The notes below the pieces were generated by a model that was not told the origin of the DNA, made no database searches, and worked only from the letters and a program-made list of their open reading frames with translations. The position numbers and the translations under genes are program-made. A stretch of 64,000 nucleotides of DNA from Eukaryota sp. GEM-RC1 (Eukaryota): NCBI GenBank assembly GCA_040285855.1, contig JAUFOQ010000006.1:1364001-1428000 (forward strand), written 5' to 3'. Position 1 is the stretch's first letter. Each line of letters opens with the position of its first letter. Below are positions 8,061 through 58,317 of the stretch, in pieces.

Positions 8061-8801
8061 GATTTGGGAATGTGGTGAGAAAATGAATCGCTTTCCCATC
8101 TTCTTTTGGTCTAGTTGTCTCTAGAACTATTGTCTCCACCTTTTAACCGCTTTCTTCCTTTCGATAACACCTGTATACTCTAGTACACTTCTTATCTACT
8201 ACATGTGACACTTCTAGTGATCCTTGGTTACAGATGTCAGTATCTTTTTAATTAAGCAACCACAACTAATTTAATGTATTTTAGTATCCTTATGTGTCAA
8301 TAATTTTGTTGTTCAAGTCATCAATATGCACGTGTATCCAAGCAAAAACCTACAAATGTATTTTTTACGCATAAATTATCAATATTATCAATAACAGACA
8401 AGAAGTGGAACTTAGGTGCTGTTGAACGTGAAATCGATTTGGAGCCATTACAGAATGTACTTGATTTTACAGCAGGCTGCTGAAACAGACTTGGATGTGA
8501 ACTGAAATGAAGAAGATCATTGGAAATGTCCGTGTTTAAACACTGTTGTCACGTGCCAATAATTAATACATTTGCTACATTATATGTGCGTTGTACTTCA
8601 ATTGGAAAGAATTAGTACAACGCAATTGGATTGAACTTTTTTCATAGAAATCAGATGATACTCTTTAAATTGAAATAAGGTAAATGAAGTTCTGTTACAA
8701 ACAAAAAAAGAAGGCCACCTTTTGTGTTGTTGTTAGATCTTGTAAAAAAATTCATTGTATTGGTATGTATGTAGCAAAATTTCAATTGTTGTACACGATA
8801 T

Positions 8802-10049: not shown

Positions 10050-10546
10050 ATTCTGGGTGTGAGTTTCTATTTTTGCCTTCAATCAAACGCAACCCTAAGC
10101 AGTATCATTTAGTGTTTCATTTAAGTGTTTTAGTCAATTTTTAAATTGTTCTCACAAACTCTGCGTGAGACCAATTTTGTATTGAGATTAAATGTTTCTT
10201 GAAGTGTATTGTTTGTGAACATAACTAAAGTACAGTACCCTCATATTGAATTTTGCATTTGTTGTATTCTATATTTATTCTTTTTTTCTGTGCATTTTTG
10301 GTCCTGACTGCTATCTTGTGGTAACAATGTTGCTATTTGTTTCATCCATGGAACGCAAATCCCCGAATAGCCGATTTACAAATACATTTGCTATTTTGCA
10401 ATAGGCCACAATCCCAGACGTAACCTCATATTGACTTGCCAATAATGATCTTTCAGATACTCATTTATTGTTTCGATGTATTTAAATTTTTACAGTCCCT
10501 TCTGTTGGCGTAAACTTCGTAACTTATATGTGGTGTTAATTCATGT

Positions 10547-11755
10547 TTACAATACAATGGGCTTGATCCTGTCTTTTGGCAACCCTAATACACGACCCTT
10601 TGAAATCTCGAGAATAGTCTCTTGGAGTTTCGGGGATAGACGGTTTGAACGTAGGTTAACAGCTTGAATGTTAGAATTGACTTTCAAGATTTCTACCAAT
10701 GATATCGCTGTCTCAGTATCAATAGAGTTATTGACCAGTTCCATTAGAACAATTGTAGAATTTACTCTGAGCATTTCAAACAAGGCCATGCCACCTTTTG
10801 GCCCGATAGAGTTTTCACTGAGATTAATATAAGAAATAGAAGAATTTTCTTTGAGAGCATTGGCTAAAACAATAGCTCCTTCATCACCAATAGAACGGTT
10901 TTGTAGACGAAGTGAAGTAATTGAAGAATTTACTTTTAACACTTCTGCCAAAGCCTTGGCACCCTCTATAGTGATGATTGCGCTTTCTGGAGGACAAAGG
11001 AAAACATCGAGACAAAGATCAGTAATTGTTGAATTCACCTTCAAAGCATCAGCTAATGTTATGACTTCTTCGTTATCAATAGGCCTATATAAGAGAGATA
11101 ACTTGGTTACAGTAGAATTTACTTTCAACAATTCAGACAATTTAGTACAAATCGATGATTTGTGAAAAAATAGATCCAGTTCTTTTAGTCTTGAAAAATA
11201 GAATGGAGAAAAACTGTTCAAAAAGTCCAAGTCATTATCCTTGTCGATCCCCACTGAAATTCCTGTAATGATATTACAGTAGGGAACAAGGTCTTCGAGT
11301 TTAGGGGCTACATAATCCCACAAGTACACAGATTGAACTTCTGAGCCAAAGAAACAAGCTAATGAAGATTGGAGGGGTAAGTCTTGAGAAACAGTAGGGA
11401 AACAGTTGGATTCAAAGAAGTCTTTCATTGTTGCAAGCACACATTTAAAAAAACTTTGACTCACATAACCAACTTTCTCAAAGAGGGTTGGCAGTTCTTG
11501 CTTCAAACGGCTAAGAGGAATACGTGGATCAGATTGATATCGGTCGAGAGAACAATTCAAAAGAAGATCGAGCAAATGAAGATTGATCAAACTTAAGATT
11601 GATTCGGGTAAACACAATGGCTCAGATGATCCTACAGTAGAGTTCAACTCAGGTGAAGAAAGATAATCTGAGGAGAAGTCACTGACTGTATCATCATGCG
11701 ATAGACTGTCATCAGAAGAACGAGTCATCTTCACAGGAGGATAATTGTGAGGCAT
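10547..11755 (-). CDS. RI-like LRR protein (paralog of 42388..43534)
   Basis: LKVNSTITxLxLxxNxIGDEGAxxLA repeats; near-identical to the inverted copy at 42388..43534. Confidence 0.88.
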   Translation of the reverse strand: MPHNYPPVKMTRSSDDSLSHDDTVSDFSSDYLSSPELNSTVGSSEPLCLPESILSLINLHLLDLLLNCSLDRYQSDPRIPLSRLKQELPTLFEKVGYVSQSFFKCVLATMKDFFESNCFPTVSQDLPLQSSLACFFGSEVQSVYLWDYVAPKLEDLVPYCNIITGISVGIDKDNDLDFLNSFSPFYFSRLKELDLFFHKSSICTKLSELLKVNSTVTKLSLLYRPIDNEEVITLADALKVNSTITDLCLDVFLCPPESAIITIEGAKALAEVLKVNSSITSLRLQNRSIGDEGAIVLANALKENSSISYINLSENSIGPKGGMALFEMLRVNSTIVLMELVNNSIDTETAISLVEILKVNSNIQAVNLRSNRLSPKLQETILEISKGRVLGLPKDRIKPIVL

Positions 11756-11839
11756 GTAAGTACTATAATGTAGCAGAATTTCTTTTTTTTGCTTGTTGTA
11801 ATCTAGATTGTAAATCAGTAAGAGCGCTTTTACCAAGGA

Positions 11840-12270: not shown

Positions 12271-15200
12271 CTAATTCTTCTTCTTCGGAGCAATTTTCAA
12301 AACCTCAAGTAACTGAAATCTCTTTTTACCAAAATCCTTACCCATCCAATCATCTGACGTCAGCAGCTCACTAACTGTATCACCAGTTTCATCATCAAAA
12401 TCATCACTAATTTCCATCAGCAAGTCTTTCAAAATCAATGCTTGGTACAATCTATCAACAGCTAGGCCTCTGACTTTAGGCATTGGATGACCAGTAAGAG
12501 ACACTAAAGTTAATAGACATGGCATAGAGACTTCGTTTTCAGACATTAAATGAGATAGAATAGTTGAAATAACCTCAAGTTTAGAAACATCCATTGATTT
12601 GGACATTTCAGATCGTACTAATTTAAATAGTTGTGAAATATCAAAATTTTCAGTGATGGGTGAGACTATTCCAGACTCAATGAAAACTTGACAACTTTTT
12701 AAAATGCAAAGAGAAAGTCGGGGTGACCGACATTCTAAGCTCCACATTTTCAAAAATTTATCAAATATTTCACGAATTTGATCTTTTGACAGCTTATTTA
12801 CAAACTTTTTAAATTCTTCAAAAGATTCTCTGCAAATATATTCGGTCTTCTCTCCAATTAATGCAACGGTTCCCCTCCAAATAGAAATAGAGACAGAATC
12901 ATTAGTTAAGAGAGGGAAAAAGGTAGCAAAACATTGAGAATCAGAATCAAAAGTTGTTGCTAAATTTGAAATAATTTCACAACTCGAATTTTTCAAATTT
13001 TGAAGTTCATTCAATGTTAAAGCGGCGGCGGTACGAACTCTTTTGTTCTTAGACAGGCATTGCTCTAGTACCAATGCAATAACATCAAGTTTCTCGGATT
13101 CAGAAAAATAGTTGAATATTTTAAAAATTGATTGCAAAGTAGATATTCTAACCCAGGAACCAACATCACCTCGATTATCCGTTTGATAATCTGTTAAACA
13201 AAGTTTAAATATTTCAAATATTTCACAGGATTTTTTTGAAAGGGAAATCACGTTAGCTAAAGTCTTGATTGCAATAGACCTGGTCTCAGCATCATCTTCA
13301 GTAGACACACTACAATTTTCTACTATAAACCTCCACAAATCATTCAAATGTTCACTTAAATACTGGCCTAACGAAGTCAACTGACCAAAAAAGTAAAGTA
13401 GACCATTCTGGGAATTAATCCTCAATTGCCACACGATTTCCCAATGACGTGTTGAGAATAGTGTCTGGTTTGTTAGGAAAAGATGGTGTATAACTGTTGA
13501 AAGGCTTAGTAGTAGAGAATTGTCATCTGAAGTCTTCATGTGGTCGATTGTCCAATCAAAAATGATTGAAAACGTGGATGAAGTGAGTGAGTGTGATGCT
13601 AATACTGCAAGATACTGACTAAAAGCGTGAAGAATTAGAGAATTTCTACCACAACCTTGGGAAACAAATAAGTTTTTAATAAATGTCGAAAGTTCTTCTG
13701 TCAAAAATTCAATAATTCCGAATTTGTTGAAAAAGAGGGTGTAATGACGTCAACAAAATTAAACTTCCATGTGGTTTTGAAATATTAAATTTGGACCCAG
13801 ATGAAACGTGTTTAACTGCGTGCTTAACCGCGTTTTGCACCATATCCATGTCTGAAACAGTCGATAATATTTTAAATATTGAGTCCGCCGCCAATTTTCT
13901 AATATTCTCATCCCAATGAAATATACGTTCCTCCAACAAATGAGAAAGAATAACATCTCTGTAATAATCAATTGCCAATTCAGGCGCCGCAATCAAATAC
14001 GAATGATTGACATTTCTGACCTTCACAAAATCAGCTGACGTGATGATCTCCAATCCATTCACAACACCAGCACACCTTCCAGCTAACTCTTGGAAACAAG
14101 CTGATCCTGCCCGTCTACATGAAACCTCACGGTCGAATAGAGAAACTAGGAGGAATGACTTGGACAGAGTGGGGAGAAACGGGGTTAAGTGTTTAGAATA
14201 CATTTTAGTCAGACACCAGAATACAAAGCAGGTGACGTCTCTGATTAATGACCCAATGAACTTTCCACTTTGGGGTTGATCAAAGAAGAGGAATTTGATC
14301 AGGAGGGAAATTAATGAAGGCAGATGAGACTCAAAGAGCAAACCTTTGCGAACAAGCTCAGCGATGGAGAGTAAATGTCCATGTAAGGTGTCTTGTTCAA
14401 CTAGCTTTGAATTATTTAAATAATCATACAATATTTGAAATATCATTTCTCTGGAATTATCAGATATTCTGGCTACTATCTGAGCTATTCCCTGAGCAGA
14501 AGTCCATCTAACTGAGGACATGGGAAAGGACAAAGATGACAGTAGAAAGGACAGACATTGACTAGGTCCTGTGGAGGCAGTGAGGTCAATGTGGTTTGTA
14601 GTAGTTTTGGCGGGGTCAAGAAGTAGCAGGCAGATTTGTTCAGTGAGTTGAACTAAAATTTTAAATATTAATGAATTGTTTTTAAATAGTGGCATTTGGA
14701 GGTCTGATAGCAGAGTCATGTAGATTAAGGTATCTGAGACATATGACGACACGCAGAAAGGATCTCCAAATTTAAAAAAAGTAATATAATGTTTGAATCA
14801 TTCCAGTAAAATAACTGACTGTGGAAGGACTGCAATCGAAGTTGATTGATGATGAGTAGAGATCTAGAGTAAGCTTTGAGTCGGGATCGTTGATTTTAAC
14901 CCAATCGAACATTAAATTTAGAATATTAAAATATTTCTCTCTCAAACTTTGGCAATCATTTCTGATTAGTAATCGCGCCAATCCCAAAGAGGAAGCTGCC
15001 ACATCCACGCTACTGGTGAGCCCCATTGAGAAGCAATCAAATAAATCACTTGAAATGTGATTGTTGACTGTCTGAAGGTCAAAAGGAGACAAGACTAATT
15101 CAGAAACCCACGTAATAGAGACCAACGTGACTTTCCAGAATTGATCATCTGATGACTCGAAAATAGAATTTGAATTTTTCAAAAGAAATAACAGAATTGA

Positions 15201-16130
15201 AATGAATTCAAAACTCCGAGGAAAGAAATCACAAAACGGTTGGTACTTTACAAGGGAATATAAACACGAGGAGTAATTCAAAATTTGTTTTTTAAATTTT
15301 GATAGATTGGAGGAATGAGTTGACAGTAAGGTCATGAAATTTTTGGATAAATTTTCAATTATTCTACCCGCAAAAGGAGTTAACAAAGGTAGATTATCTG
15401 CATACTTATCCACAATTTTTAAAAATTCGGAGACGGTCATTCGTGCTAAATTATCACTAACTCCTGCCAAATCCATCTCTGTAAGCTCTATTAATCGTGG
15501 ACCTTCCCTTTTCAAGTCATTCTCCAACTCAGACGAGATCACTGCCTCATCATCACACTCCAAAAGAGGCAAGTCCTGTGTCGATAGGTCACTAATCAAC
15601 CAATCAAGAGCTTCACTAATACCTTTCCCAGTCTTAGCTGAAACTGGAAAGACCCCCCACCTTCTATTGCTCAAAGCTTTTGCAATCTCGACCTCATCCA
15701 CCCCTAGTTCTTCCAAGACTTCTTCAGAAGTCAAAGCACCGGGAAGATCTTGTTTGTTAGCGAGGATTAGAAGTGTTGCTCCAATTAGACGTTCAGAGTG
15801 AAGAGCGGAAAGGAACTCAGAAGCACATTCGTCTATTCTACCAATGTCAAAGGAATCAACAACCCAAATAATGGCATCCGTGCGGTCAAAGTAAGTTCTC
15901 CAGTAAGAGCGGATGGTGGATTGTCCACCAATGTCCCAGATGTTGAGAGTGAGATTGTTGCGTTGTAGAGTGTGGATGTCAAACCCAAAGGTAGGGGACA
16001 TTGTAGAAGTGTCAAGATTCAAGATGTTCTTGACAACAGTGGTTTTGCCCGCAGAGTCAAGACCGAGCATAAGAGCTCGTTTTTCGTGGTCATCTACTCT
16101 AACCTGTCGGATAAGAGAAAGAAGAGTCAT
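12271..16130 (-). CDS. ARL2-TBCD: ARL2 small GTPase fused in frame to tubulin-folding cofactor D (TBCD); frameshifts near 14772 and 13709 lie within the TBCD part
   Basis: ARL2: MTLLSLIRQV..GLDSAGKTT..SPTFGF..WDIGGQSTIRSYWRTYFDRTD..ANKQD..SAKTG. No stop before TBCD motifs FLKIVDKYADNLPLL, VRWTSAQGIAQI, HGHLLSIAELVRKGLL, FDREVSCRRAGSACFQELAGR, DYQTDNRGDVGSWVR, HPMPKVR. Confidence 0.85.
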
Positions 16131-16211
16131 TGACTGAAAGATTTGGTATGGATTGACTTCAGTTGTCAATTTCTTAACTTCTTTTCTCCTACTTCTCTCA
16201 CTTATAATCTT

Positions 16212-17107
16212 ATGGCTCCTAAAAAGGCAAAGGAATCCACCAGGGTTGCTAAGAAAGAAGAAAAACGTATCATTGAGGACAAAACTTTCGGTCTTAAGAA
16301 CAAGAACAAATCTAAGAAAGTCCAGCAATATGTCCAGCAAGTAGAGACTCAAGTTAAACATAAGAACAAAAAGGTGCTCCTGTCAATCCTGACGCTGAAC
16401 GTGCTCGTAAGAAGAAGGAAAAGGAACAGCAGGCAGAAATGGATGCCCTACTTAATCAAGTTGTTGTCCAACCTAAGCCCAAATTTGGAGAGGAACTCTC
16501 AACAATGCAATGTGCTCAGTTTGCAGCAACTGGTTCGTGTCCTCGCGGTTCTAGGTGTAAGTTCTCTCATGACGCCAAGCCAAAGACTGACAAAATCAAC
16601 CTGTACGTTGACCAGCGAGTACAGATTGGCGCAGAAGTCAAGTTAGAAAAGATTACCACTGAAATTGTGTGTAAGCACTTCTTGGACGCAGTGGAGAGGA
16701 ATACTTATGGTTACAACTGGCGCTGTCCAACTGCCGGCAACGACTGTATCTACCGCCATTGTCTACCAGAAGGTTATGTTATTTCTGCTCATGCCGCTGC
16801 TCTTATGGATGATGAGGAAGAAAAGGAGCCCATGGAAATGATAATTGAAAGGGAACGGTCTCAGATCACAACTCATACTCCAGTTACTGATGAAACCTTC
16901 AAGGCTTGGAAGGAACGCAAACTAAAGGAGAAGGCTGAGAAGATCAAGGAGTCTGAGGAAGCTGCTGTGAGGAACCATGCTGCTGGTAAAAAGCAGCTCT
17001 GTTCTGGACGTCAGCTGTGGCAGTTTGACTCGACTCTCTTTGTTGATCAGGATGATAGTGATGACGAGTCTGAAGAGGAGGAACAGAATGATGATGATCA
17101 AAATTGA
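16212..17107 (+). CDS. ZC3H15: CCCH zinc finger protein ZC3H15/Tma46 (DFRP1); one frameshift at A-run ~16368-16372
   Basis: MAPKK..IEDKTFGLKNKNKSKKVQQY, CPRGSRCKFSH, EIVCKHFLDAVE..YGYNWRCP..CIYRHCLPEGY, TPVTDETFKAWK, SGRQL. Confidence 0.92.
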
Positions 17108-21064: not shown

Positions 21065-22865
21065 ATAGCGATTAATGATGGGTTTGCATAACATCCATAC
21101 TTTTTCTTACAATTAGAATTTCCAACTGTTAAAATTTGTGCTTATGCTGATGATTCTTCGCTGATCGCTCCAGTTGACGTTCTCAAAAAGTGTTTTTCAC
21201 GTTTCATCGAACTTTCTTTGAGTATTGGTTTAACAATTAATTTTGATAAGTGTTTTCTTGTTGTTAAGTCTTCGAATGTTTCTAATCTTGGTTTTTGTAA
21301 TATTCCTATCATCGATTATTCTACTCCAATGTTTTCGTTTCCTTGGCACGTTTTTGGGAAATTATGAGAAAATTCATTCAGAATTGGAGAGTTCATTAAC
21401 TACAATTGAAGAAAAACTAAATCAAATATTATCTTTAGATGTGAGCAAACATGTTTCCTTTGCTATGCTTCAGGTCTGTTTTTCCGGGAAAATTAATCAT
21501 TTTTTACGTTCATTAGACTATTCCCTTACTGAAACATTTGCCAAGAAATTTAATTCTATTAGAACAAATTTTCTCTCTAACTTGGCTGAAATTGATGAGT
21601 CTAAGATTCCATTTCATGCTTTTTATTCTTCTGAATTCGCAGGAGTAGGTTTCACCCATGCAAAAATCATTAGAAAATCTGCTCTTTTAGGAGGTGTTAA
21701 GAATTTTATGTTTGAATTTTTGAAACGGTTTCCCTTGGATGGAATCAATCTGTTGAATTCCAGTAATTGCCGTTGGATTCAATCTGCTAAAGATTTGTTA
21801 TCATCTTTGTCTCCTGAAATGTGGGAATCTTTGTTCCCTGTTCATTTGAAGGAGACTCCTTTAAAAATATTTCATCTCTACCATCTGCTGTATGTAAGCT
21901 GCAAAATAAATTGACAAGGAGTTTGAACTCTTGGACTTTAATAATCGTATTAGCTTGGCTAAAACTAATAGTCCCGAGTTCGCTGCTTTTTTAATCGATC
22001 TTTGTAATAGTGGACCTTCTGGATTTATTTCTCAAATTCCAAAGGTGTATGGATTACATCTATCTGATGAAGCTTGGATGATCAATATGCGTCTTCGTTT
22101 GGCTATTTGGCCTGCAAATTTATTAAACTATTCAACGTGCTCTTGTGGAGCTAATGGTGTTTTTCGTCATTTAATTAATTGTTGTTATTTTATTCATCTC
22201 CGTGCAGTAATTCATGATGGTGTACGTGATTCTTGTTATTCCATGTTTAAAGCACATGGTTTTCACTCTAAAGTTGAACCAGTTTTGAATCATCTTTCAG
22301 AAAATGAATTTACTGATCAAAAACGAGGGGATCTACATACTCCGTGGCTTAAATCGAGTCAAGCATTAATGGATTTTACTACAGTAGATGTATGTAACAA
22401 ATCTTGTGTTAGTAGGATATTAGATTCTTCTTTTAATCCATTAACAGCAGCTGAAAAGCTCAAACACATCAAGTATGACTCTCAAGTAGAAGAATTAAAT
22501 AGAAACTCATATTCCAAATTTGTGTTTCAACCTTTTGCTGTTTCTCTTTTTGGATCTATTAGTCCTGCTGGTGATCAATTTTTCAAGGATTTCGAAGAAT
22601 TGTGTAAAGAAAAGAAGCGTAAGTTTAGAATGGCTGAATGGAAAAACCGTATAGTGTTTTCCATATATCGGAATATGCCTTTCTATTTCTCTAGATTAAT
22701 TGAGAAATTGTACAAGTTTGGTGTGAAGGTTCATGTAGATAAACGTAATCTTTTACCGGGTGGTGATGAAGTCGTTTGGATTTAATCTTAGTATTATTTG
22801 TTTGTTTTTACAATTTCATAGTTTGTAGAAAGGTTACCTTATTGGGTGCCGAATAAACATCTCTC
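21065..22865 (+). mobile_element. 5'-truncated CRE/NeSL-type non-LTR retrotransposon (family A; RT + CCHC + RLE), longest copy in window
   Basis: RT YADD (~21146-21157), GLTINFDKC, FRFLG; CSCGANGVFRHLINC; RLE motifs IHDGVRD, KVEP, KRGDL, DFTTVD, AEKLKHIKY, FQPFAVSLFG; 3' end AATAAACATCTCTC. Confidence 0.9.
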
Positions 22866-26320: not shown

Positions 26321-28557
26321 CATACCTAGGAAATACAGATACACTGTATCCTGTATTTGTATCTGTATTCTGTATTTGTATCTGTATCCTAACATTGATT
26401 AATATCGTGTATTCTATATTTTGTGGATTTTCTTCAAACCCTTCAATTGAAACTGACAAAGAAGCTCCCACCAGTCGACTGCAATAATAAACAGCGTCCA
26501 CAAATTTTGTTCAAGGATCAAAAGACATCAGATGTGTATCCAACTCGAAACTGTTAGATGAGCACACACAATAGCATTTGTTTTTCCCTTATTATTCAAT
26601 GTATGTATGTTATTTCCAATCATCTCTCTGATGTTAAAGCAACATCTCCTTTGGGTGTACCGAAGAATATTTTAGCGAAGGAGGGAAATCTCAATATAAA
26701 GGTAAAAGAAGTTTTTCGACTAACAGTCACACTGATGATAACCGAGTTTTGAAGTAATTTACATTCTTAGACTTTAACTGACGTAAAAATAGTTAAATAT
26801 GTGATACCTTAGAGTAGAACGAGAACAAAATCATTTTTATAAATGGAATATAAGGATTTCAAAGCTGTACCAACATATGTTTAACTATTCGAGAGAAATA
26901 AAAATGCATATTCCTATAAATGGAAAACACAATACGCTTTTTCCACTCAGATTTTAGAAACTTACGCTACTTTTCTTTATAAAGTTCTTCAAAATCTTTG
27001 TGAATTTGTGCACCAGCAAGACTAATTGATCCAAAAGCGAAACAACAAATTTGGAACACAAATTTGGAATACATGTGAACAATATATGTTTAACTGTGTT
27101 TATGAAATACAAACTTATCTAACAACAATGACAAGTACATTGCCACGTCAACAGTAGAATCTTATGACCAATGATGTCTTTGTATCTGTATCTGTATTTT
27201 TGTATCTGTATTCTGTATTTGTATCTGTCTTTGGAAAGAGAGATGTTTATTCGGCACCCAATAAGGTAACCTTCCTACAAACTATGAAATTGTAAAAACA
27301 AACAAATAATACTAAGATTAAATCCAAACGACTTCATCACCACCCGGTAAAAGATTACGTTTATCAACATTAACCTTCACACCAAACTTGTACAATTTCT
27401 CAATTAATCTAGAGAAATAGAAAGGCATATTCCGATATATGGAAAACACTATACGGTTTTTCCATTCAGCCATTCTAAACTTACGCTTCTTTTCTTTACA
27501 CAATTCTTCGAAATCCTTGAAAAATTGATCACCAGCAGGACTAATAGATCCAAAAAGAGAAACAGCAAAAGGTTGAAACACAAATTTGGAATATGAGTTT
27601 CTATTTAATTCTTCTACTTGAGAGTCATACTTGGAGTGTTTGAGCTTTTCAGCTGTTGTTAATGGATTAAAAGAAGAATCTAATATCCTACTAACACAAG
27701 ATTTGTTACATACATTTACTGTAGTAAAATCCATTAATGATTGACTCGATTTAAGCCACGGAGTATGTAGATCCCCTCTTTTTGATCAGTAAATTCATTT
27801 TCTGAAAGATGGTTCAAAACTGGTTCAACTTTAGAGTGAAAACCATGTGCTTTAAACATGGAATAACAAGAATCACGTACACCATCATGAATTACTGCAC
27901 GTAGATGAATAAAATAACGACAATTAATTAAATGACGAAAAACACCATTAGCTCCACAAGAGCACGTTGAATAGTTTAATAAATTTGCAGGCCAAATAGC
28001 CAAATGAAGACGCATATTGATCATCCAAGCTTCATCAGATAGATGTAATCCATACACCTTTGGAATTTGAGAAATAAATCCAGAAGGTCCACTATTACAA
28101 AGATCAATTAAAAAAGCAGCGAACTCGGGACTATTAGTTTTAGCCAAGCTAATACGATTATTAAAGTCCAAGAGTTCAAACTCCTTGTCAATTAATTTTG
28201 CAGCTTACATACAGCAGATGGTAGAGATGAAATATTTTTAAAGGAGTCTCCTTCAAATGAGCAGGGAAAAAAGATTCCCACATTTCAGGAGACAAAGATG
28301 ATACCAAATCTTTAGCAGATTGAATCCAACGGCAATTACTGGAATTCAACAGATTGATTCCATCCAAGGGAAACCGTTTCAAAAATTCAAACACAAAATT
28401 CTTAACACCTCCTAAAAGAGCAGATTTTCTAATGATTTTTGCATGGGTGAAACCTACTCCTGCGAATTTAGAAGAATAAAAAAGCATGAAATGGAATCTT
28501 AGACTCATCAATTTCAGCCAAGTATTTGGAAATGGTTTCGTGTATTTCCTAGATTTG
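26321..28557. mobile_element. Non-autonomous hAT-like element containing a CRE insertion
   Basis: TIRs CATACCTAGGAAATACA / TGTATTTCCTAGATTTG; near-TSD ACTAAATC 26313-26320 / ACTCAAATC 28558-28566; TGTAT(C/T) subterminal repeats. Confidence 0.78.
27238..28522 (-). mobile_element. 5'-truncated CRE-like family A copy
   Basis: Near-identical to 21580-22865; flanked by T(C/A)TTTGGAAA at 27228-27237 and 28523-28532 (TSD). Confidence 0.92.
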
Positions 28558-28924
28558 ACTCAAATCTACTGTATTTATAGCGGGAAGCTCTACATAGCGT
28601 AGGTACATATAGTCCCACTAAAAACAGTTTTGACTGTACGTAGTATTCAATTTCAAAATTTGAACAGTTGCTACGTGAATAGCCTATTGCGAAGTAATTG
28701 ATGGTTGTATTGTATTGTGCCAATGTTAACAAAAACATCGTTCAGTTCTTGATGTTTTAGTAAAGTGTTGTATGATAAATTCACCGATGGATTTTATTAC
28801 CATTGCAAATTAAGAATAGCATCAGTATTGACAAATGATAAACCCAATAATAAAATTCCAGAAAAGCAATCTGGCCCTTGAGGGTATTGATTTTTAGATG
28901 TAGGGACACTGTAGTGTACTAAAC

Positions 28925-29362
28925 TTTGTTCGGTACCCAAACCTTCCTACGAAAATACAAATTTGTAGCAACATACAAATAATACTAAGACTAAATCCAA
29001 ACGCCTTCTTCCCCAAAAGGTTACGTTCTTCAACATAATCCTTCACACCAAACTTGTACAATTTCTCAACTAATCGAGAAAGATAGAAGGGCATATGCCT
29101 ATTTATGGATAACACAATGCGGTTTTTCCCTTCAGCGATTCTAAACTTACGCTTGGTTTCTTTACAAAGTCTTCGAAATCCTTGAAGAATTGATCACCAG
29201 CAGGACTAATCGATCCAAAAAGAGAAACAGCAAAAGGTAGAAACATCAATATGTTGAAACACAAATCTGGAATATGAATTTCGATTCTATTCTTCTACTG
29301 GAGAGTCATACTTGGAGTGTTTGAGCTTTTCAGCAGCTGTTAACGGATTGAAAGAAGAATCT
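28925..29362 (-). mobile_element. Diverged 3' fragment of CRE-like family A
   Basis: Colinear with 27250-27682. Confidence 0.8.
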
Positions 29363-29499
29363 ATAAAGACCGTAGTGTTGTTGTCAATATATAGATATAG
29401 TGATTATACAAGCCAAATATAGTATTCATTTTGTTTGACTAATCTTCGAGTTACACTGAGATTTTTTTTATTTTTATTTTTGTCCAGTTGTATTTTCTA

Positions 29500-34010: not shown

Positions 34011-34195
34011 CTAAACTGTTAGAATGCACAGAAGCCAATTGCAATAGTACTATGTTTGAAAAGGCAATACACCTCCACTCCAAAATTTGTATTTGTAAAT
34101 CATTTTAGGTCAATCATAAATAGGCCTCAAATAAAATAAAATCACATCGGTTCGGATAAACAAAATCGGTACGTACCAAAGATTTGCGCACATTG
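34011..34195. mobile_element. Right-end fragment of the 5141..5726 MITE family
   Basis: Colinear with 5542-5726; the terminal AATCGGTACGTACCAAAGATTTGCGCACATTG is identical. Confidence 0.85.
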
Positions 34196-34289
34196 AAATT
34201 ACTCACTTACTTTTATCATTGAAATGAGTGAATCCTAAGATTCAATAATTCTACAGATTCACTGTAGTAAATAAAGGCTATGACTATGA
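34196..34289 (-). ncRNA. Putative Fanzor omegaRNA scaffold
   Basis: Minus strand after the stop: CTACAG-tgaat-CTGTAG, TGAATC-ttag-GATTCA, ACTCATTT..AAGTGAGT (one G-U pair). Confidence 0.5.
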
Positions 34290-37200
34290 CTATGACAAAT
34301 AACTGGGTCTAGTTCCTAGACCCCGCTCCAAATGATGCTCCACAATTGTCTTGATGTTGATACATGCTAACTTGTTACGATTCCAAACATTGGCACTACC
34401 ATGACATTCTTCCCTACATTCTTGGGACTTGCATCTCAACAAAGCGTGACACTCTACAAGGGGTTTCTTCTCTCTTTTCCATGGTTTTGGATTACTGATT
34501 TCTTTGAACACTTTAACTGGCTTCCAACAAGTAGGACACTTTGAAGACGTGTAACTCTCATCTACAAGAACAATATTGTAACCATTTCTCTTAAAGAAGT
34601 TTCTCCAACCAACACCTCTACTTGATCGAAGGTGTTTTAGGTTCTGCGTCTTATTACCATTGTCACCAAACATCAATACACAGTCATTTTTATTCCATCC
34701 TTTTGCAGTCATATTTTTCAACAACTTACTTTCTGTTTTTTGAATATGGACGTATCTTTGCATTTTTGAATGCGCCATATCATCAAACAGTAGTAATCAA
34801 ATGTTGATTCAATAACTGTTAGTTTGGAACTCACATAGTCATAGAACGTGTCATAAAGAGTGGACTTCGAATTTTCTTTGGATAATGTTGACTCTTCTTC
34901 TTCAACTGTCTTTCCATCTCGGAGAATGAATTCTTTTTTCTTTCCCCTTCTAAACTTTTGATGAACCCTTGACCATCTGGACCATTCTGTCTCTGTCAAT
35001 CTTAGCCACTCATATTCTTTGTTTCTTCTTTCTCGGGCTTTTTGTTCAGGAAATGGCCTATTTACTTTCTCTGAACAAAAATAGAGTAAATCTGTTTTTC
35101 CAGGGTCAATAAACACTTTTGTTTTCAATGAAAACTCTTCAACATCATAGTCTTGAACATATTCTTCTTTACTGGAGAACTTTGCACTGTCTGGTTTAAA
35201 TGACATTCCCACACAGTCCTCTCTGGTAAGTTCAACACAAGCAGAGAAACCATCAGTTTTAATGGTATTGTTAAACTTATAGCCTTTCTTTATAAATGGA
35301 CGATTAAAGTTGAAAAAGTAAGACCAGAATTGATTTTGTTCAGCAGGAGACATGTGTTCAATTTCAACTTTTGTGTTCCAATCAGACATTTTCTTCTTGA
35401 CATTCACTTGTTTTGTTGACAAAGTGGAACGTAATATTCCCCAAAGACCTTGTGTGTCTATTTCAAAGAAACCTGGTGTGACGTGACGAACAATAGGAAT
35501 TACATTGTAAGCACTTGCTCCTTCACTTTCAAGATAGTTATTTATTTGAATCGCAGATTTAATAAAGGATTGAGGATGTTCACGAACTGATGTTAGTAGA
35601 GATTTAACGACTTTCTTTTTATAAACACCATTAGCATTTTGAACATCAATTGATGGTGGGAAGAGAACATCAATAAAATATTTATCTCTAAACAATCCTT
35701 CAACATAGTCGTTAGTTGCCCACAGAAGTTTAATTTTACCTGCAATGTTCAAACTTCTATTACTGTCGTCTTGAAGAATTTCTGTATTACATCTTTGAAT
35801 AAATTGTTTTATTTCTGCAGGGGTTTTTGGAATGTCATTTCTGTTACCTTCAAGAAAGACATTTTTAACTTGTCTAAGTCTCCAACGAAAAACAGACTGT
35901 TCTTTTTTTGACATTTTTTCTTCTTGATCAGTCTTTTGAAAATAAACATTAATAAATTTGTCAATGTATTGAGCATATCGCATTTTAATATTGGTGTCCA
36001 AATTCGATTTAATAGTTTCACCAACCATTGCCATAAGTCGTGAGGAATGAGCAGCTGGAAAGAGTGGAATTCCTCCATTGTTGAGCATTACTTGTTTGTA
36101 TTGATTTGTAACAAATGTTCTCAAGTGTTCATTAAATGTAGGAGGTCGTCCTTGATTACATAATTCAATCTCATGATGTTCAGCAGAGATGTTTCTTAAC
36201 AGAGTTTGAATATGTTCTACTTCCTTCCTTGTAATTAATCGTAATTTTTCACCATTCTTATCCATGTGTAATAAAAACAGCTTCAAACAATAGGAAGTGT
36301 GCATTCTAAGTTTGTGAACCAATTGAGCATAATAATCGAGTAATAACGTTAATCCAAAATGTTTGACAATAGACTTGAGTGTAGTCTTATGTGTTACGAA
36401 AGTGGGACGAACTATTTTATTTGATTGAAATAATAAAAACAACTTCAATGCTAGTACACTATCTTTGAAGCAATAGTTCACAACTTCTTGAGGTCTTTCA
36501 ACAACACAATCAATAGGCAATAAGTGGTGAAATTCGTCATGAAGACGTCCTTTAGATTCGTTTAATAAAAACCAACTTAATGATCTTAAAGACTTTGAAC
36601 ATTTTGAAACAATAAATTGCTTAGCATAGCCGTATGAATCACAGACAATTCTACCAGCCCATTCAGAACAAACTTTCTGCCATAGAGATGATAAATGAGA
36701 TTTAGTTGTGTCATCTAGCATTGGTTCTGGAAAGTCGACTCCAAGTGTATCAATCCTTTTGTCTAAAACAACATTATCGAAGTCAGTGATGTTAAATCCA
36801 GTTAAAATAGAAGGTTTTTATCATTCAAATAGTTGACAAAAAACTCTAGTAACTGTTTTTCGTCTTCAAAAAAATGAAGGTTTCTACAATCAGGTGGCAG
36901 TTCAACATCAGATTCATGAGTCAACTCATAAGTTGCAACAAAATTGTCTTGAAGGTAAAATTGATCTTTTATAAAATGACCAAACACTCCAGAAATCATA
37001 AAAACTTGTTGGTTTTGAATCCACACTTCTTTTCTGCATCACTTTTCATTTTGAGAGATTCATTCTCGTTCTTTCTTTGATCGTCCAACTCCTGTGTAAC
37101 TGTCTCTGCAGGGATCTGATCAATTTCTCTAGTTTCAATATCAAAAGACAATATTGAACAATGATTAGAGTTATTTGGTAATTGGGAATGTTTCAGAAAC

Positions 37201-39809
37201 TCAATCATTGGTTTTTTAGAAGGTTTCAAACTCTTTGTCGCATTTGATACTCCACTTGCTTTTGGTTTGGTGGTTTTCCTTTTGGCAACTGTTGTTTTTC
37301 TATTTCCTGTTGCTTCTGTTGTTTCAGTGGTGTCAGATGATTCAATTGCTTCTGTTGCTTCTGTTGTTTCAGTGGTTTCAGATGACTCAATTGTTTCTGT
37401 TGCTTCTGTTGTTTCAGTGGTTTCAGATGACTCAATTGTTTCTGCTGTTTCTGTTGTATCAGGTTTCTCACAAGCAGCAACATATATTTTTGGAGTTGGT
37501 AAATGTATTTCTGGAAGATCTGTCAACTCTGGACGACTAAAGCTATGATAACTTTCTTGAAACAATTCTTCAGCTTCTTCCAGCGCTTGTTCAATCATTT
37601 TTAACTTCAAAAGACGTTTCTTTTCCGGTTAGATAAATTTCCAGGTAAGCTTTTCAGAAAGTTTTGATAAGTGAGCTTTGACACCGTTTCCTTGTAACTA
37701 CTATCATCTACCATTGTTTCAGGAGTTAAACTTTCAGATTGACACTGTACAGGTTGATTAACAGGTGATACAATCTCATCAGAATAAAACTCATTTAAAA
37801 TACCTTGAGCATGAGTACATACATATTGTCGGTATTCATCAGGGTGATCTTCATCAGGGTGAGTAGTAACGATTTGAGACAGTATTTGTTTTCTCATTTC
37901 TAATGCATTATAAACAACACAGTTAGAGACTTTAGACAGAATTTCGAAAAGATTTGTTGATGTTGATTCACTCTCGACAATTTTATTCATATACATTAGA
38001 ATAAATAGACCACAGTCATTGAGAGTTTGGACTTGTTGAACTGGTACTCTAGCTATATAGCTGAAATTTGCCATATCAAACAGGAATTGCTGTAATTGTG
38101 AAATGACTTTGTCAATACGTGATAAAGTGTTAAAAAACTGAGAATGTTGATCTTCTGTACACATTGAGTCAATAGAGAAGTACTGTTTGTTTTCAATATC
38201 ACAGATTAACAGTGACCAGTGAGTGGCTGTTGTACCAAAGAGACCATCATGTATTGGAATAAACAAGAAACGTTTCTTACACTTTTTAGTGTGTCTTTTA
38301 CGGGACTTTTCCATTGATAATTGAACCTCTCTAAATTGTTCAAACATTATGTTATATTGTGAAAGATTAATAGCATCTTGAATGTTGGCTACTTCAAAGA
38401 ATTCACATAGATTACTCTTTTGAGCAATGTACTGACCGACATAGTCAATGACAGAATCATGAAGCAGTACATTTGGTTTCCAGTGAGTCAATTTGATCAG
38501 ATCTTAGTAAAAGTGGTCTAGGACGAGATTGTGTTAGAATTCCACGATGTTGATGTTGAATAAGTTGATATTTTTGCGAAAATTTCTTCTTTTTTGGAGG
38601 ATATTTTCTAGATTGACGAGTTTTTCTTGTACGATTTGAGTCCATAAGTTGATTGGGTATAGTCAATGGCACTTGTCGAGTTTCATCAGGAGATAAAATT
38701 ACTGTTGGATGTTCGGCTATTTCAGAAGTACCAGCAGATCTATTCATTTGTTGTTGCAAAGGTGTAGAATGAACTATAGTACTGTGTTCTTGAACATGTG
38801 CTTGAATGTTGTTTGAAAAGTACTCATGTACAATACTTACAGCAAGTATAGCAAAAGGAATAGGATGCGTGGTTGCTATCAGATTTAGAACTTGTTTTCT
38901 CATGTCAAAAGCATCATAATCGACATAACCTTGGACTTGAGACATAATTTCCTGAAAATTGTCAGATGATGATGCCAAATGAACAAATCTTTGCATATAC
39001 ATTAAGATATATGGTCCACAGTCGTTGGGAGTTTGATGTTTAATAACTGGGAGCTTTCCTAAATTTGAAAAATTACCAAAATCACGCAAATATACCTGTA
39101 ATGTACTTACAACTTGATCATTTTGAGTTGAAACGTCAAATGAAAGTTGAGTTGAACTGTCAGTGTACATTGAATCAAGTGAAAAAAATGATGTACTGTC
39201 AATGTCACAAACAAGTAGAGTCCAATGAGTTGCTGTACCACGAAAAACACCATCGTTTATTGGAATAAATAAAAACCTTTTCCCAGTCTCTCGCATTGAA
39301 TTCTGAACATTTAGAAATTTAAGAGCTAATGTGTCAAAATTGCCATAACTCACTGCAGCATGAAGATTCCCGATACGGAAAAACTGGCATAACTCACTAT
39401 TCTCGGTGATGTACTCACCATAAAAGTCAACAACAGAATCATCGAGCCATACGGAGGGCTTCAATGTGGTGATTCCTTCCTCAGTGACAAAAGGACCAGG
39501 GTTTGACTCTATGTCTCCATCCGTGGTTAAATCACGGAGAAATTGTGATGACTGGAGACTTGATTGTAGAAAAACCATACAAGTGCTGACTTTATGATTG
39601 TAAAAACAAAACAACGACTGAGACGAACTCAAGACTTTCCCTAACAACAACAAAAGAAGAAACAACATAGAATAATTCGAGAATCCATGAGAGAAAAAGG
39701 AACGCCTCGAGAAAATATGTTCTATTGGCACATCCTTAAACACGTGATCGTGTTTGGTTGATGAAAAGAAGAAGGAGAGAGATCTCAGGACACAAGTATC
39801 CATAAACAT
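34290..39809 (-). CDS. Reconstructed polyprotein: leader-2A-Ulp1/SENP8 protease x2-repeat linker-PolB-type 3'-5' exonuclease-Fanzor1
   Basis: Six track ORFs join by single-base fixes: one extra G at ~38480 and one missing A in A-runs at ~37622, ~37031, ~36817 and ~34765. Protease motifs HWTLLVCD/LDS/QTPNDCG and HWSLLICD/IDS/QTLNDCG; Exo I SFDIET, Exo II ILTGFNITDFD, Exo III NYCFKD; Fanzor IKTDGFSA, VFIDPGKTDLLY, MFGDN, LVDESYTSSKCPTC, CKSQEC, WNRN..ACINI. Confidence 0.82.
37309..37458 (-). repeat. 45-bp coding tandem repeat (~3.3 units; ETTETTEATE[T/A]IESS)
   Basis: Unit TTGCTTCTGTTGTTTCAGTGGTTTCAGATGACTCAATTGTTTCTG repeats on the + strand. Confidence 0.9.
39492..39539 (-). other. 2A-like (StopGo) ribosome-skipping peptide LRDLTTDGDIESNPG|P
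   Basis: Exact match to the GD(V/I)ExNPGP consensus, with the typical upstream LRDLT context. Confidence 0.9.
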
Positions 39810-39891
39810 CTCTCCAAGCAATTAGACTCAAATATAAATTCTCACTATTTATAGATGTTGTCTACAGTGACATCTTGTCATACTGAAACTG

Positions 39892-39962
39892 ACAACATAT
39901 GTAAAAACAACATTTAGTAGTACAACATTTGTTACAACAACATTTGGTGATACAACATTTGT
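39892..39962. repeat. Five ACAACAT(T) motifs at exact 15-bp spacing upstream of the polyprotein
   Basis: ACAACAT starts at 39892, 39907, 39922, 39937, 39952; inverted ATGTTG at ~39855 and ~39996. Confidence 0.8.
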
Positions 39963-41830: not shown

Positions 41831-42387
41831 TCCTTTTTGAATTAAGAGTACGGTATCCACAACCGTGGTCCTCTGGAGACATCATTCGCTCATCTCCTAG
41901 TAAATGGGTGAATCTGTGTCTATATTAGTTGAATCTTTGAATGCTGATGTATGAACGACTCTGTTTCCTACAAGTGTAACGGCGACTCCTCGTCGTTCTT
42001 TATCTTCCCTACCCTTTTGTATTGTAGAATATATTATTGTAAGACTGGAGTTATTGTAATATATTGTAAAATATACATTGTATTACAATATTTGGCTCAT
42101 GCAATTCACAGAACAAGTTGGTTCTTGTGCTCTTAGACCATGTTAGTCAGGAGAGTATGGTAAACGTATACGAATCTAAATTCTTAAATCTTAAAACACC
42201 ATTGCAAAAAAAAATCGCTGATTGTTTTATATTAGAAGCTTCCCGTCCCTTGGTAAGTAAAGTAAAGTTGCGTATCCTTGGTAAAAGAGCTCTTTCTAAT
42301 TTACAATTACAACAACAAACATTGATGATGTATAGTGTACTTGTTGTACAATGAGACTCTAATTCTGCTACATGTAGTGACTCTTAT

Positions 42388-43534
42388 ATGCCTCACAATT
42401 ATCCTCCTCTGAAGATGACTCGTTCTTCTGATGATACGGTCAGTGACTTCTCCTCAGATTATCTTTCTTTACCCGAATCAATCTTAAGTTTGATCAATCT
42501 TCATTTGCTCGATCTTCTTTTGAAGTGTTCTCTTGACCGATATCAATCTGATCCCCGTATTCCTCTTAGCCGTTTGAAGCAGGAACTGCCATTCCTCTTT
42601 GAGAAAGTTGGTTATGTGAGTCAACGTTTTTTTTAAATGTGTGCTTGCAACAATGAAAGCCTTCTTTGAATCCAACTGTTTCCCTATTGTTTCTCAAGAC
42701 TTACCCCTCCAATCTTCATTAGCTTGTTTCTTTGGATCAGAAGTTCAATCTGTGTACTTGTGGGATTATGTAGCTCCTAAACTCGAGGACCTTGTTCCCT
42801 ACTGTAATATCATTACAGGATTTTCAGTGGGGATCGACAAGGATAATGACTTGGACTTTTTGAACAGTTTTTCTCCATTCTATTTTTCAAGACTGAAAGA
42901 ACTGGATCTATTTTTTCACAAATCAACGATTTGTACTAAATTGTCTGAATTGTTGAAAGTAAATTCTGCTGTAACCAAGTTATCTCTCTTATATAGGCCT
43001 ATTGATAACGAAGAAGTCATAACATTAGCTGGTGCTTTGAAGGTGAATTCAACAATTACTGATCTTTGTCTCGATGTTATCCTTTGTCCTTCAGAAAGCA
43101 AAATCATTACTATAGAAGGTGCCAAGGCTTTGGCAGAAGTGTTAAAAGTAAATTCTTCAATTACTTCACTTCGTTTACAAAACCGTTCTATTGGTGGTGA
43201 AGGAGCTGTTGTTTTAGCCAATGCTCTCAAAGAAAATGCTTCTATTTCTTATATTAATCTCAGTGAAAACTCTATCGGACCAAAAGGTGGCATGGCATTG
43301 TTCGAAATGCTCAGAGTAAATTCTACAATTGTTCTGATGGAACTGGCCAGTAACTCTATTGATACTGAGACAGCGATATCATTGGTAGAAATCTTGAAGG
43401 TCAATTCTAACATTCAAGCTGTTAATCTCCGTTTAAATCGTCTATCCCCGAAACTCGAAGAGACTATTCTCGAGATTTCAAATGGGCGTGTATTAGGGTT
43501 GCCAAAAGACTGGACCAAGCCCATTCTATTGTAA
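42388..43534 (+). CDS. RI-like LRR protein, inverted paralog of 10547..11755 (frameshift at T-run 42627-42634)
   Basis: Protein near-identical to the 10547 copy, with two in-frame N-terminal deletions. Confidence 0.82.
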
Positions 43535-43779
43535 ACATGAATTAACAGCACATCTAAGTTACGAAGTTTACGCCAGAAGCAGGGACTGTAAAAATCTAAA
43601 TAAACGAAATGATAAATCTAAAAGACACAAATGTATAAATGATTTATTAAAATACTAAATACGATATAAATGAATGATATTGAGAGTTCTTTCAAATACA
43701 ATATCAGCTTTGGACCAGAGCTGGACCAATAAGAGCACACCCATAACTGAATCTAATAAAATACACAAAAGGAGGATGA

Positions 43780-49307: not shown

Positions 49308-49632
49308 TTTTGCTGTTTCTCTTTTTGGATCTATTAGTCCTGGGTGATCAATTTTTCAAGGTTTTCGATGAACTGTGTAAAGAAAAGAAGTGTAAGTTTA
49401 GAATGGCTGAATGGAAAAACCGTATAGTGTTTTCCATATATCGGAATATGCCTTTCTATTTCTCTCGATTAATTGAGAAATTGTACAAGTTTGATGTGAA
49501 GGTTAATCTTGAAAAACGTAATCTTTACCCGGGTGGTGATGAAGTCGTTTGGATTTAATCTTAGTATTATTTGTTTGTTTTTGCAATTTCATAGTTTTGT
49601 AGGATGGTTAACTTATTGGGTACCGAATTAAG
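49308..49632 (+). mobile_element. 3' fragment of CRE-like family A
   Basis: Colinear with 22534-22857. Confidence 0.85.
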
Positions 49633-49754
49633 TTTTCTAGTTTTAGTATTTGTTGTTTTCTTGTTGTGATTTTTTCTCCGCACATATATTCGTTCTACAA
49701 AATGTAATTACTTACAGAAATTCAAATTTTAACACATATAGTATACCCTCGATA

Positions 49755-57967: not shown

Positions 57968-58175
57968 GAGAGAAGAGATGTTTATTCGGCACCCAATAAG
58001 GTAACCTTCCTACAAACTATGAAATCGTAAAAACAAACAAATAATACTAAGATTAAATCCAAACGACTTCATCACCACCCGGTAAAAGATTACGTTTATC
58101 AACATTAACCTTCACACCAAACTTGTACAATTTCTCAATTAATCTAGAGAAATAGAAAGGCATATTCCGATATAT
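57968..58175 (-). mobile_element. Severely 5'-truncated recent CRE-like family A copy
   Basis: Near-identical to 27240-27441; GCAAAA on both flanks (57962-57967, 58176-58181). Confidence 0.88.
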
Positions 58176-58317
58176 GCAAAAATCACAATGATCACATTTT
58201 CCAATATATTTATTGTACATTTTTTAAGCTAAAAATATATTGCAATATATATTTATTTCGATCCCTGTATCGGTCAATTTATGACGAAAAAGATTTTTAT
58301 TTATGGGGTGTCTCAAG

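Follow-up and report, generated by a model that had tools for sequence, protein, structure and literature searches.

Six open reading frames lie end to end on the minus strand of a 64-kb window (the whole stretch of DNA analysed here), raising the question of whether they are separate genes or the pieces of a single one, and what such a gene would do. The initial annotation had proposed that the six abut and that a one-base repair in a homopolymer at each junction restores a frame of about 1840 codons. An ORF scan of the window returned six stop-to-stop frames with every neighbouring pair overlapping (Table 1), and the one-base repair holds at all five junctions, although the word homopolymer is generous for the GG at J1. 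Rejoined, the span amounts to about 1845 codons with zero in-frame stops along the coding path, and each of the modules assigned to it, a Fanzor1, two cysteine proteases, a 3'-5' exonuclease and a 2A motif, was identified across the six frames.

Table 1. Positions of reading frames, junctions and modules in the window.
Feature	Position	Strand	Remarks
ORF1	38457-39821	-	stop-to-stop frame
ORF2	37607-38503	-	stop-to-stop frame
ORF3	36996-37628	-	stop-to-stop frame
ORF4	36802-37038	-	stop-to-stop frame
ORF5	34718-36817	-	stop-to-stop frame
ORF6	34290-34796	-	stop-to-stop frame
J1	~38480	-	one surplus base in GG relative to homologues
J2	~37622	-	A-run of 4-5 short by one base vs homologues
J3	~37031	-	A-run of 4-5 short by one base vs homologues
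J4	~36817	-	A-run of 4-5 short by one base vs homologues
J5	~34766	-	A-run of 4-5 short by one base vs homologues
Short leader and 2A/StopGo-like motif	39492..39578	-	GDIESNPG/P; nearest ATG 39578
Cysteine protease 1, Ulp1/SENP family (C48)	38860..39491	-	motifs HW..L, D, Q..N.CG
Protease 2	37870..38503	-	tandem duplicate of protease 1 (45% aa, 65% nt); J1 at start
Low-complexity linker	37160..37870	-	conserved short motif across J2
DEDDy 3'-5' exonuclease, family-B polymerase type	36420..37154	-	J3 and J4 inside
Exonuclease motifs	~37142; ~36790; ~36470	-	ExoI D-I-E; ExoII N-xxx-F-D; ExoIII Y-xxx-D
Full-length Fanzor1	34290..36420	-	J5 inside; stop at 34290
Fanzor1 catalytic motifs	~35107; ~34559; ~34376	-	RuvC-I D; RuvC-II E; RuvC-III N; also C4 zinc finger
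Candidate omega-RNA scaffold	34196..34330	-	hairpin in last codons and three-stem fold 34275-34200; weak
Separate hAT-like MITE end	34036..34195	-	adjoins candidate scaffold

At every junction, 25 residues on each flank align through the break (with an X inserted) to a natural homologue or an internal paralogue, and the alignment to homologues continues without loss of a residue. Scores for the chosen frame from J1 to J5 were 87, 71, 139, 99 and 134, as compared with at most 33, 36, 48, 46 and 69 for the other two frames, and a tblastn search with P0001 switched frame at exactly adjacent residues at J4 (997/998) and J5 (1691/1691). Introns were considered as the source of the breaks, and GT-AG pairs of at least 43 nt can be drawn at each junction, but excision would remove gaplessly aligned residues. 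Programmed frameshifting at five sites is unparsimonious, the relatives being in frame. Homology supports the descent of the six frames from one ancestral frame with the order 2A, protease, protease, exonuclease and Fanzor1, because P0001 (1846 aa) and P0005 (1905 aa) of Eukaryota sp. TZLM3-RCL, a skoliomonad metamonad, carry this order in a single frame. P0008, P0175 and P0188 are further one-frame models spanning breaks of the window copy. These relatives are AUGUSTUS gene models, known as predicted proteins, and P0001 and P0005 differ at two short stretches resembling predicted introns that bridge frameshifts. The six frames likely form a single gene, belonging to a selfish element that is present in multiple copies in skoliomonad-like protists; the host is eukaryotic, with flanking TBCD, Arf, p24, PolD2 and kinase genes that contain GT-AG introns.

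Whether the copy itself is intact is a separate matter. We regard it as probably so, with moderate confidence, and sequencing errors are the likely origin of all five breaks: none of the 1845 codons is nonsense, all catalytic residues are retained, four breaks each lack one base of an A-run, as is usual for long-read errors, and sister models lose frame at different runs, ones that are unbroken in the window copy. Nanopore sequencing with short-read correction underlies the named assemblies (10.1101/2023.05.03.539051), and this correction is presumably weak in repeats. Alternatively, the window copy may be a true pseudogene of a family that is itself real, with some or all five frameshifts residing in the organism's DNA, a reading of considerable, if less than even, probability. 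Congruent with decay, P0170 has J5 as well, its tail being shifted in the same way. The five close models of the GEM-RC1 assembly (P0009, P0012, P0013, P0170 and P0194) are partial without exception, and among close relatives none was found to span J5, the nearest that does standing at 64%. The density of five breaks in 5.5 kb also exceeds that of the host, where among seven split genes examined PolD2 has the one clear frameshift and ThiF, in the unique flank at 39.8-40.3 kb, a possible one; breaks in the kinase and phospholipase genes are due to introns, as those of TBCD may be. A host-wide frameshift rate was considered as proof of assembly error and rejected, PolD2 being the one clear case. 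Moreover, the PolD2 frameshift is an extra base, as opposed to a missing base in four of the five element breaks.

The C-terminal module has the Fanzor1 motifs IDPG, DESYTSSKCPTC and WNRN, together with a TnpB-like RuvC and C4 zinc finger. Its triad is D-E-N, and the third residue being N, not D, is compatible with activity in GtFz1 (PMC11423790). The comparison with Fanzor2, TnpB and Cas12 was performed on the homologue P0169, 48% identical to window ORF5, which proved closer to Fanzor1 over REC-WED-RuvC-TNB: its top PDB sequence and fold matches are SpuFz1, PpFz1 and GtFz1 (E 1e-17 or better) versus 1e-5 for Cas12f, it matches SpuFz1 at E 5e-24, and its fit to the Fanzor1 fold reaches TM 0.82 by target length (Z 28.1, rmsd 3.4, 567 aligned). 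The likeness to these three proteins covers the whole length in both fold and sequence, including the zinc finger, with the triad common to GtFz1; as in Fanzor1, the window gene stops just ahead of a 3' stretch, here with a candidate fold, and as in Spu-1 no transposase was seen in cis. It departs from known Fanzor1 proteins in its size (~1840 aa against 600-850), in its N-terminal linkerless family-B exonuclease, proteases and 2A, in an omega RNA and TAM that are putative, and in that no terminal inverted repeats were found at the window copy.

A check against Pfam, as suggested with the original reading, returned Peptidase_C48 (ORF1, E 5e-9; ORF2, E 1e-10) and, below the curated cut-off, Cas12f1-like_TNB in ORF6 and DNA_pol_B_exo1, the last split between ORF4 (profile half 87-157) and ORF5 (the consecutive half 158-240). 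The exonuclease combines ExoI DxE, ExoII NxxxF/YD and ExoIII YxxxD with an RNase H-like fold, motifs and fold in common with the proofreading domain of Pol delta, epsilon and alpha and of archaeal and viral PolB, although, as distinct from family-B DNA polymerases, the window protein has no polymerase domain. In the predicted structure of P0169 (pLDDT 88.5), residues 1-246 superpose on the Pol alpha, epsilon and delta exonuclease domains with Z about 16, the exonuclease ending at residue 246 and the Fanzor beginning at 248, i.e. without a linker. All ten aligned exonuclease domains retain the D-x-E of ExoI along with the aspartates of ExoII and ExoIII, with pairwise identities between lineages of 18-50%; P0159 is without ExoI. 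An atlas search, taken as a lead, returned PolB exonuclease clusters alone, at 0.85. Regarding the donor lineage, eukaryotic, archaeal-type and viral PolBs score alike against the window-family exonuclease.

Across relatives, the 2A-protease-protease-exonuclease-Fanzor architecture originally proposed stands as to its order, but only its last part is constant: the invariant unit is exonuclease plus Fanzor, abutting and linker-free, and the number of proteases ranges from zero to two. In a FastTree phylogeny, from which rows below 330 aa (named) or 580 aa (others) were excluded, the 18 rows of skoliomonad type group together as a single clade (SH-like 100), separate from 82 other Fanzor-like rows. 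Spread over three skoliomonad assemblies, the exonuclease-Fanzor clade counts six or more lineages, a proofreading exonuclease having been kept on Fanzor1 across at least six diverged subfamilies, and copies are multiple per assembly, with clusters of 10 and 11 members. Signs of module exchange may be read from sequence comparisons within the family: along ORF5, P0170 is 48-84% identical to the window in the first 500 residues, rising to 92-98% in the final 200, and P0115 and P0175 share a common 2A-protease front (78%) joined to differing exonuclease-Fanzor backs. Among the listed profile matches (the best 150 of 306), seven of 149 have the exonuclease, namely six named skoliomonad proteins and P0020; occurrence outside skoliomonads was judged among these listed matches, and word searches miss distant relatives. 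The initial remark that no description of this architecture came to notice agrees with our literature search, in which no natural exonuclease-Fanzor fusion was found.

Motifs of the His-Asp-Cys triad and the oxyanion Gln are present in both window proteases. For protease 1 the best PDB match is SENP8 (E 1.3e-6; Ulp1 1e-3), and profile comparison places SENP8 narrowly ahead of the SUMO proteases (E 3e-16 vs 1e-14), by which small margin the proteases appear closest to SENP8/NEDP1, with NEDD8 specificity suggested as far as the best match goes. The pair arose by its own duplication, and that of P0001 is not orthologous to it. Because lineages without a protease exist (P0071 and P0167, where the 2A is followed by the exonuclease), self-processing is not required. 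The linker contains a Thr/Glu repeat at 37304-37467 and basic patches that may be NLS-like. Ubiquitin-like proteases are likewise fused into mobile-element proteins in Ulp1-bearing DNA transposons (Ginger1, Mutator/MULE) and OTU-bearing Helitrons, where an effect on DNA repair has been proposed for them (PMC2836005); in the present family they are joined to an RNA-guided nuclease rather than to a DDE transposase or Rep-helicase, the protease is variable in number, and SENP8 is the nearest solved relative.

At the opposite end, DIESNPGP at 39515 is the sole occurrence of D[VI][EH]xNPGP in six frames of the window, in agreement with the 2A octapeptide consensus D(V/I)ExNPGP (PMC12846837). The nearest ATG is 28 codons ahead of the final Pro, and other ATGs lie further upstream in the same frame. 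The motif alone is insufficient for ribosome skipping, which needs upstream context (PMC3708506). It is present in 10 of 58 surveyed gene models, certain relatives having an E-to-H variant, and its position varies, before or after the proteases; in P0191 it separates the protease from the exonuclease-Fanzor. Since the predicted 2A of the window most likely follows a short leader, it would not split the enzymes apart. A 2A placed this early in one long ORF, among its first tens of residues, is also known from non-LTR retrotransposons (L1Tc, Ingi, CR1, Rex1, L2; PMC3708506), from which the window gene differs in having neither reverse transcriptase nor APE endonuclease and its family in the lineage with an internal 2A. 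The finding adds RNA-guided elements, and metamonad protists, to the settings in which 2A motifs and ubiquitin-like proteases occur.

Of seven segments picked by hand over the candidate omega-RNA fold at the 3' end of the gene, six gave z between -2.0 and -2.7, but a 211-nt segment gave -0.87, and Rfam returned no match over the scaffold, with one unrelated weak match only. Candidate element ends are 34196 or 34260. No significant terminal repeats or target duplication were detected at the window copy, the single copy examined; a 9-nt inverted match (39870/34267) is one of three 9-mers found and not above chance. The pair CACTGTAG..CTACAGTG (39869/34260) was considered for terminal inverted repeats on its CACTA-like letters, but was rejected, having no target duplication and being at chance level. 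The adjoining MITE has a full copy at ~5143-5727 with an 8-bp target duplication, from which we presume it to be a hAT, and CA..TG ends; the terminus matches perfectly over 33 nt at 5726-5694. If the element ends at 34196, the MITE end would supply the guide. As first noted, no transposase is visible near the gene, and Pfam gave no match of any kind, transposase and Rep-helicase included, in 22 short flank frames, where a frameshifted or divergent gene could escape.

As to the natural role of Fanzor nucleases, the exonuclease-Fanzor1 lineage points to what follows the cut. Tentatively, and at slightly under an even chance, we favour a Fanzor1 fused to a proofreading-type 3'-5' exonuclease that spreads by cut-and-trim homing. 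Skipping at the predicted 2A would free the short leader, as 2A biology elsewhere suggests, and an omega RNA from the 3' end would direct cleavage of the non-target strand some 16-17 nt beyond the TAM, as in SpuFz1, which cleaves that strand after base 16-17 (PMC10432273). By this geometry, cutting an empty site would leave a TAM-side 3' tail of ~16 nt, for which the left junction of the donor offers no match. Trimming of this tail by the tethered exonuclease would let repair synthesis copy the element in and would disfavour re-ligation; in yeast recombination, the proofreading activity of Pol delta trims invading strands in this way, taking off their 3' ends and non-homologous tails (PMC9477423). 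The optional SENP8-like proteases, in what is the weakest step, might remove NEDD8 or SUMO from host factors of repair or silencing rather than act on the polyprotein. To reach new sites, the element would depend on a trans-acting transposase or on ectopic recombination, neither of which was seen. Engineered T5 exonuclease on CRISPR/OMEGA effectors is the same pairing of RNA-guided cutter and end-processing exonuclease, and the reduced editing upon fusing an engineered 5' exonuclease to SpuFz1 counts against cut-and-trim (PMC13434818). The window type is instead natural, of 3'-5' polarity and conserved across lineages, offering genome editing an evolved, ready-made cutter-trimmer where the engineered SpuFz1 fusion failed. 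The homing hypothesis is testable by one mutation in a 940-aa natural protein, such as those of the KAL0213088.1 type.

The same fusion could instead destroy what it cuts, the exonuclease degrading the ends, with mutation or loss of the targets, be they rival mobile elements, viral DNA or copies that have been excised, possibly as host or inter-element defence. A tethered exonuclease would indeed block re-ligation, the guide would be a dispersed MITE terminus should the element end at 34196, and the fusion has long been retained in three species; yet the many near-identical copies, and a 2A and Ulp1 cargo of the kind that selfish elements typically carry (PMC3708506, PMC2836005), argue otherwise, the MITE may be a later insertion and no guide array was seen, making this unlikely. 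We consider it similarly unlikely that the exonuclease acts on RNA or on intermediates of the element itself, trimming the omega RNA 3' end or transposon ends, with the Fanzor providing ordinary restorative homing to a non-autonomous DNA transposon that is mobilised in trans. There are precedents for Fanzor1-only elements mobilised in this manner (PMC10432273), and DEDD nucleases serve as nucleic-acid trimmers in CRISPR adaptation (PMC10284694) and are present in both P and piggyBac elements (PMC3627910), but the present domain is of the DNA-acting family-B proofreading type, other Fanzor1s mature their guides without one, and the one copy showed neither terminal inverted repeats nor target duplication.

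A virus or Polinton-like remnant, in which the exonuclease is left over from a DNA polymerase, maturation proteases cut a polyprotein and the Fanzor was captured, is very improbable. The term virus-like polyprotein used at the outset holds for the 2A only. Large DNA viruses do have PolB exonucleases and CE-clan proteases, and viral Fanzors are structural neighbours; against this, the proteases are nearest to cellular SENP8/NEDP1 and missing in some lineages, no capsid, polymerase palm, integrase or ATPase was seen in the frame or flanks, and no virion, polymerase or integrase genes were found in the window flanks or relatives' models. Scans of viral contigs recovered no relative of the fusion; together with metagenomes they gave 28 loci, all DNA polymerase exonuclease domains, with polymerase motif C in 19 of the 28 matching ORFs and a Fanzor-profile match in none.

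Taken further, cut-and-trim homing might describe a transposase-free, self-copying eukaryotic element in which one polypeptide unites an RNA-guided cutter, a borrowed proofreading domain priming the broken end and a deNEDDylase tilting repair to recombination, its own homing shuffling the modules, a picture that we hold to be rather doubtful.

The six minus-strand frames proposed in the initial annotation, which together carry a 2A, two proteases, an exonuclease and Fanzor1, are present and overlap serially; the breaks between them are termed J1 to J5. With an X placed at each break and 25 residues per side aligned in the three frames, the chosen frame aligned across 5/5 junctions, at about twice the alternative-frame scores or more, using the element's own first protease as reference at J1 and natural homologues at J2-J5. 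Introns (≥43 nt) were rejected as the cause of any junction, as aligned residues would be deleted; indeed, tblastn detected zero residue loss at J4 and J5, thus excluding introns there. Two Peptidase_C48 matches were found by Pfam in the element frames. The DNA_pol_B_exo1 match is split by a break into two consecutive halves, and both it and the terminal TNB zinc finger scored under their curated cut-offs because the matches are fragmentary.

Independent witnesses were recovered as predicted gene models, known here as proteins rather than DNA. Among 4204 candidates, three longer relatives of the fifth frame, ORF5, were identified, all from Eukaryota sp. TZLM3-RCL (1846, 1281 and 2524 aa), and cluster look-ups added others from TZLM3-RCL, TZLM1-RC and GEM-RC1, all skoliomonad metamonads (10.1101/2023.05.03.539051, the main text of which does not contain the word Fanzor). 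The order 2A, protease, protease, linker, exonuclease and Fanzor recurs as one chain in the model P0001 (1846 aa) and in a second model of its cluster, P0005 (1905 aa). These two differ in two short stretches resembling predicted introns over frameshifts, and P0005, P0008, P0175 and P0188 are therefore better witnesses than P0001.

In the PDB, matches to the relative P0169 (940 aa, exonuclease and Fanzor, 48% identity to ORF5) include SpuFz1 (E 5e-24), PpFz1 (2e-20) and, at lower significance, yeast Pol delta (3e-6). In its predicted structure (pLDDT 88.5), residues 248-940 superpose on SpuFz1 (Z 28.1, rmsd 3.4, 567 aligned) and residues 1-246 on family-B polymerase exonuclease domains (Z ~16), the modelled domains abutting directly. 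Nearly all family members carry a D-E-N RuvC triad, as does the active GtFz1 (PMC11423790). By sequence and predicted fold the element protein belongs to Fanzor1, with guide RNA use and activity predicted. Protease 1 is nearest to SENP8 (E 1.3e-6), followed by Ulp1 (1e-3), though by profile SENP8 leads the SUMO proteases only narrowly. The 2A fits the canonical octapeptide (PMC12846837) 28 codons past the nearest ATG, and skipping is predicted; its position resembles N-terminal 2As of non-LTR retrotransposons, the authors of that work cautioning that the motif by itself does not guarantee activity (PMC3708506).

A motif survey of 58 models identifies exonuclease plus Fanzor as the invariant core. 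The 2A precedes two proteases in P0001, P0005 and the window, one in P0159, P0175 and P0115, and none in P0071 and P0167, while in P0191 the protease comes before the 2A; 2A-like motifs occur in 10/58 models, many of the remainder being short fragments, and in 0/134 other proteins compared. The window's proteases are sisters (45% identity) and neither groups with those of P0001 in a small FastTree analysis with long branches, hence the window pair arose separately. In a midpoint-rooted tree built on the Fanzor portion, a single clade (SH-like 100) unites 18 skoliomonad-type rows against 82 other Fanzor-like proteins, with exonuclease sequence in at least six of its lineages. The ExoI, II and III acidic residues are kept in 10/10 aligned exonuclease domains at 18-50% identity between lineages, and the exonuclease is present in seven among the 149 profile matches listed, at least six of them from named skoliomonads. 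Two models, P0007 and P0003, show a DEAH-helicase-like region in place of the 2A-protease front (DEAD and Helicase_C by Pfam in P0007), which may reflect either a genuine exchange of cargo or the merging of adjacent genes during prediction.

We somewhat favour the window copy being intact. The roughly 1845 codons of the rejoined frame contain no nonsense codon, every catalytic residue is retained, four of the breaks are single-base losses within A-runs, sister models lose frame at other places, and the essential host gene PolD2 is also frameshifted, its Pfam profile being matched over 1-102 in one frame and over 96-200 in another. However, P0170 has the same shifted tail at J5, the relative search found no close relative spanning J5, and PolD2 is the only clear frameshift among seven split host genes, in the direction opposite to the element's losses; the others comprise two introns, two possible introns (TBCD), a possible frameshift (ThiF) and LBP, assigned to neither class. 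The exonuclease-Fanzor family stands almost certainly, regardless of this copy.

As to function, we tentatively propose, at slightly below even probability, cut-and-trim homing with the exonuclease as end trimmer. OMEGA nucleases have been put forward as drivers of homing into empty sites (PMC13565253), and cleavage of the non-target strand by SpuFz1 falls 16-17 bases beyond the TAM (PMC10432273). Cutting an empty site would leave a TAM-side 3' end with ~16 nt absent from the donor's left junction; yeast Pol delta proofreading strips such ends ahead of copying (PMC9477423), and a proofreading-type domain on the Fanzor N-terminus would suit removal of the tail. Paralogues are mosaic in identity with swapped front modules, fitting, though not proving, frequent gene conversion. 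The proteases might influence repair in these protists: in human cells, deneddylation favours both resection and recombination (PMC4333419), and an effect on repair has been suggested for the Ulp1 domains that Ginger1 and Mutator elements carry (PMC2836005). That the exonuclease instead serves end destruction or defence is unlikely, and trimming of RNA or transposon ends with a transposase in trans equally so; a viral remnant is highly improbable. As initially annotated, no transposase was found in the element's flanks, nor were viral genes found there.

Natural fusions joining Fanzor to an exonuclease, a protease or a 2A did not turn up in the literature searched, including term look-ups of the main texts of PMC3627910, PMC10711439, PMC10530073 and PMC10432273, although supplementary Fanzor catalogues could list long members. 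PMC12338488 does not mention Fanzor, and PMC6338049 names DnaQ-like domains only for LTR retrotransposons.

At the 3' end, the region past the stop is predicted to fold into three stems (z -2.7, the best among seven hand-picked windows; -0.87 in a longer window). The CATA of the GTCATA units at the stop equals the SpuFz1 TAM (PMC10432273), probably by coincidence. The repeats and TATA-like box just 5' of the first frame are possibly a promoter or subterminal repeats.

Features of the window (window-relative coordinates)
Feature	Position	Strand	Remark
Element frames	39821 to 34290	-	six
Breaks J1-J5	~38480, ~37622, ~37031, ~36817, ~34766	-	
AAATGTTGT-like short repeats	39890-39950		five
TATA-like box	39852		
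Dispersed repeat	upstream of 40300		
GTCATA x3, tandem	34298-34281	-	overlaps Fanzor stop codon
Candidate 3' fold	34275-34200		
MITE end	34195-34036		separate element, starting beside the fold
MITE, full copy	~5143-5727		about 580 bp, 8-bp target duplication, CA..TG ends, within retrotransposon remnant
Second, different Fanzor1 C-terminal fragment; PIF1-like helicase	992-1917; 42-934	+; -	back to back
Endonuclease-like repeat copies	21580-22865, 27238-28523, 5727-6171, 28920-29363, 49308-49635, 57974-58181		C-terminal, restriction-like look
LRR gene pair	10463-11780, 42361-43617		90% identical, expanded family
Arf GTPase and start of tubulin cofactor D (TBCD)	14772-16382	-	one stop-free frame
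LBP/BPI-family lipid-binding gene	6648-8120	-	protist-type genome

The second Fanzor1 fragment, itself frameshifted, carries a D-type RuvC-III, a basic tail and a zinc knuckle, and together with the helicase is possibly a Helitron-type remnant. Two copies of the endonuclease-like repeat, presumably CRE/R2-like and matching nothing in Pfam, share 98% identity across 1.29 kb. Finally, since Arl2 partners TBCD, a fusion or tight linkage of the Arf and TBCD genes is possible.
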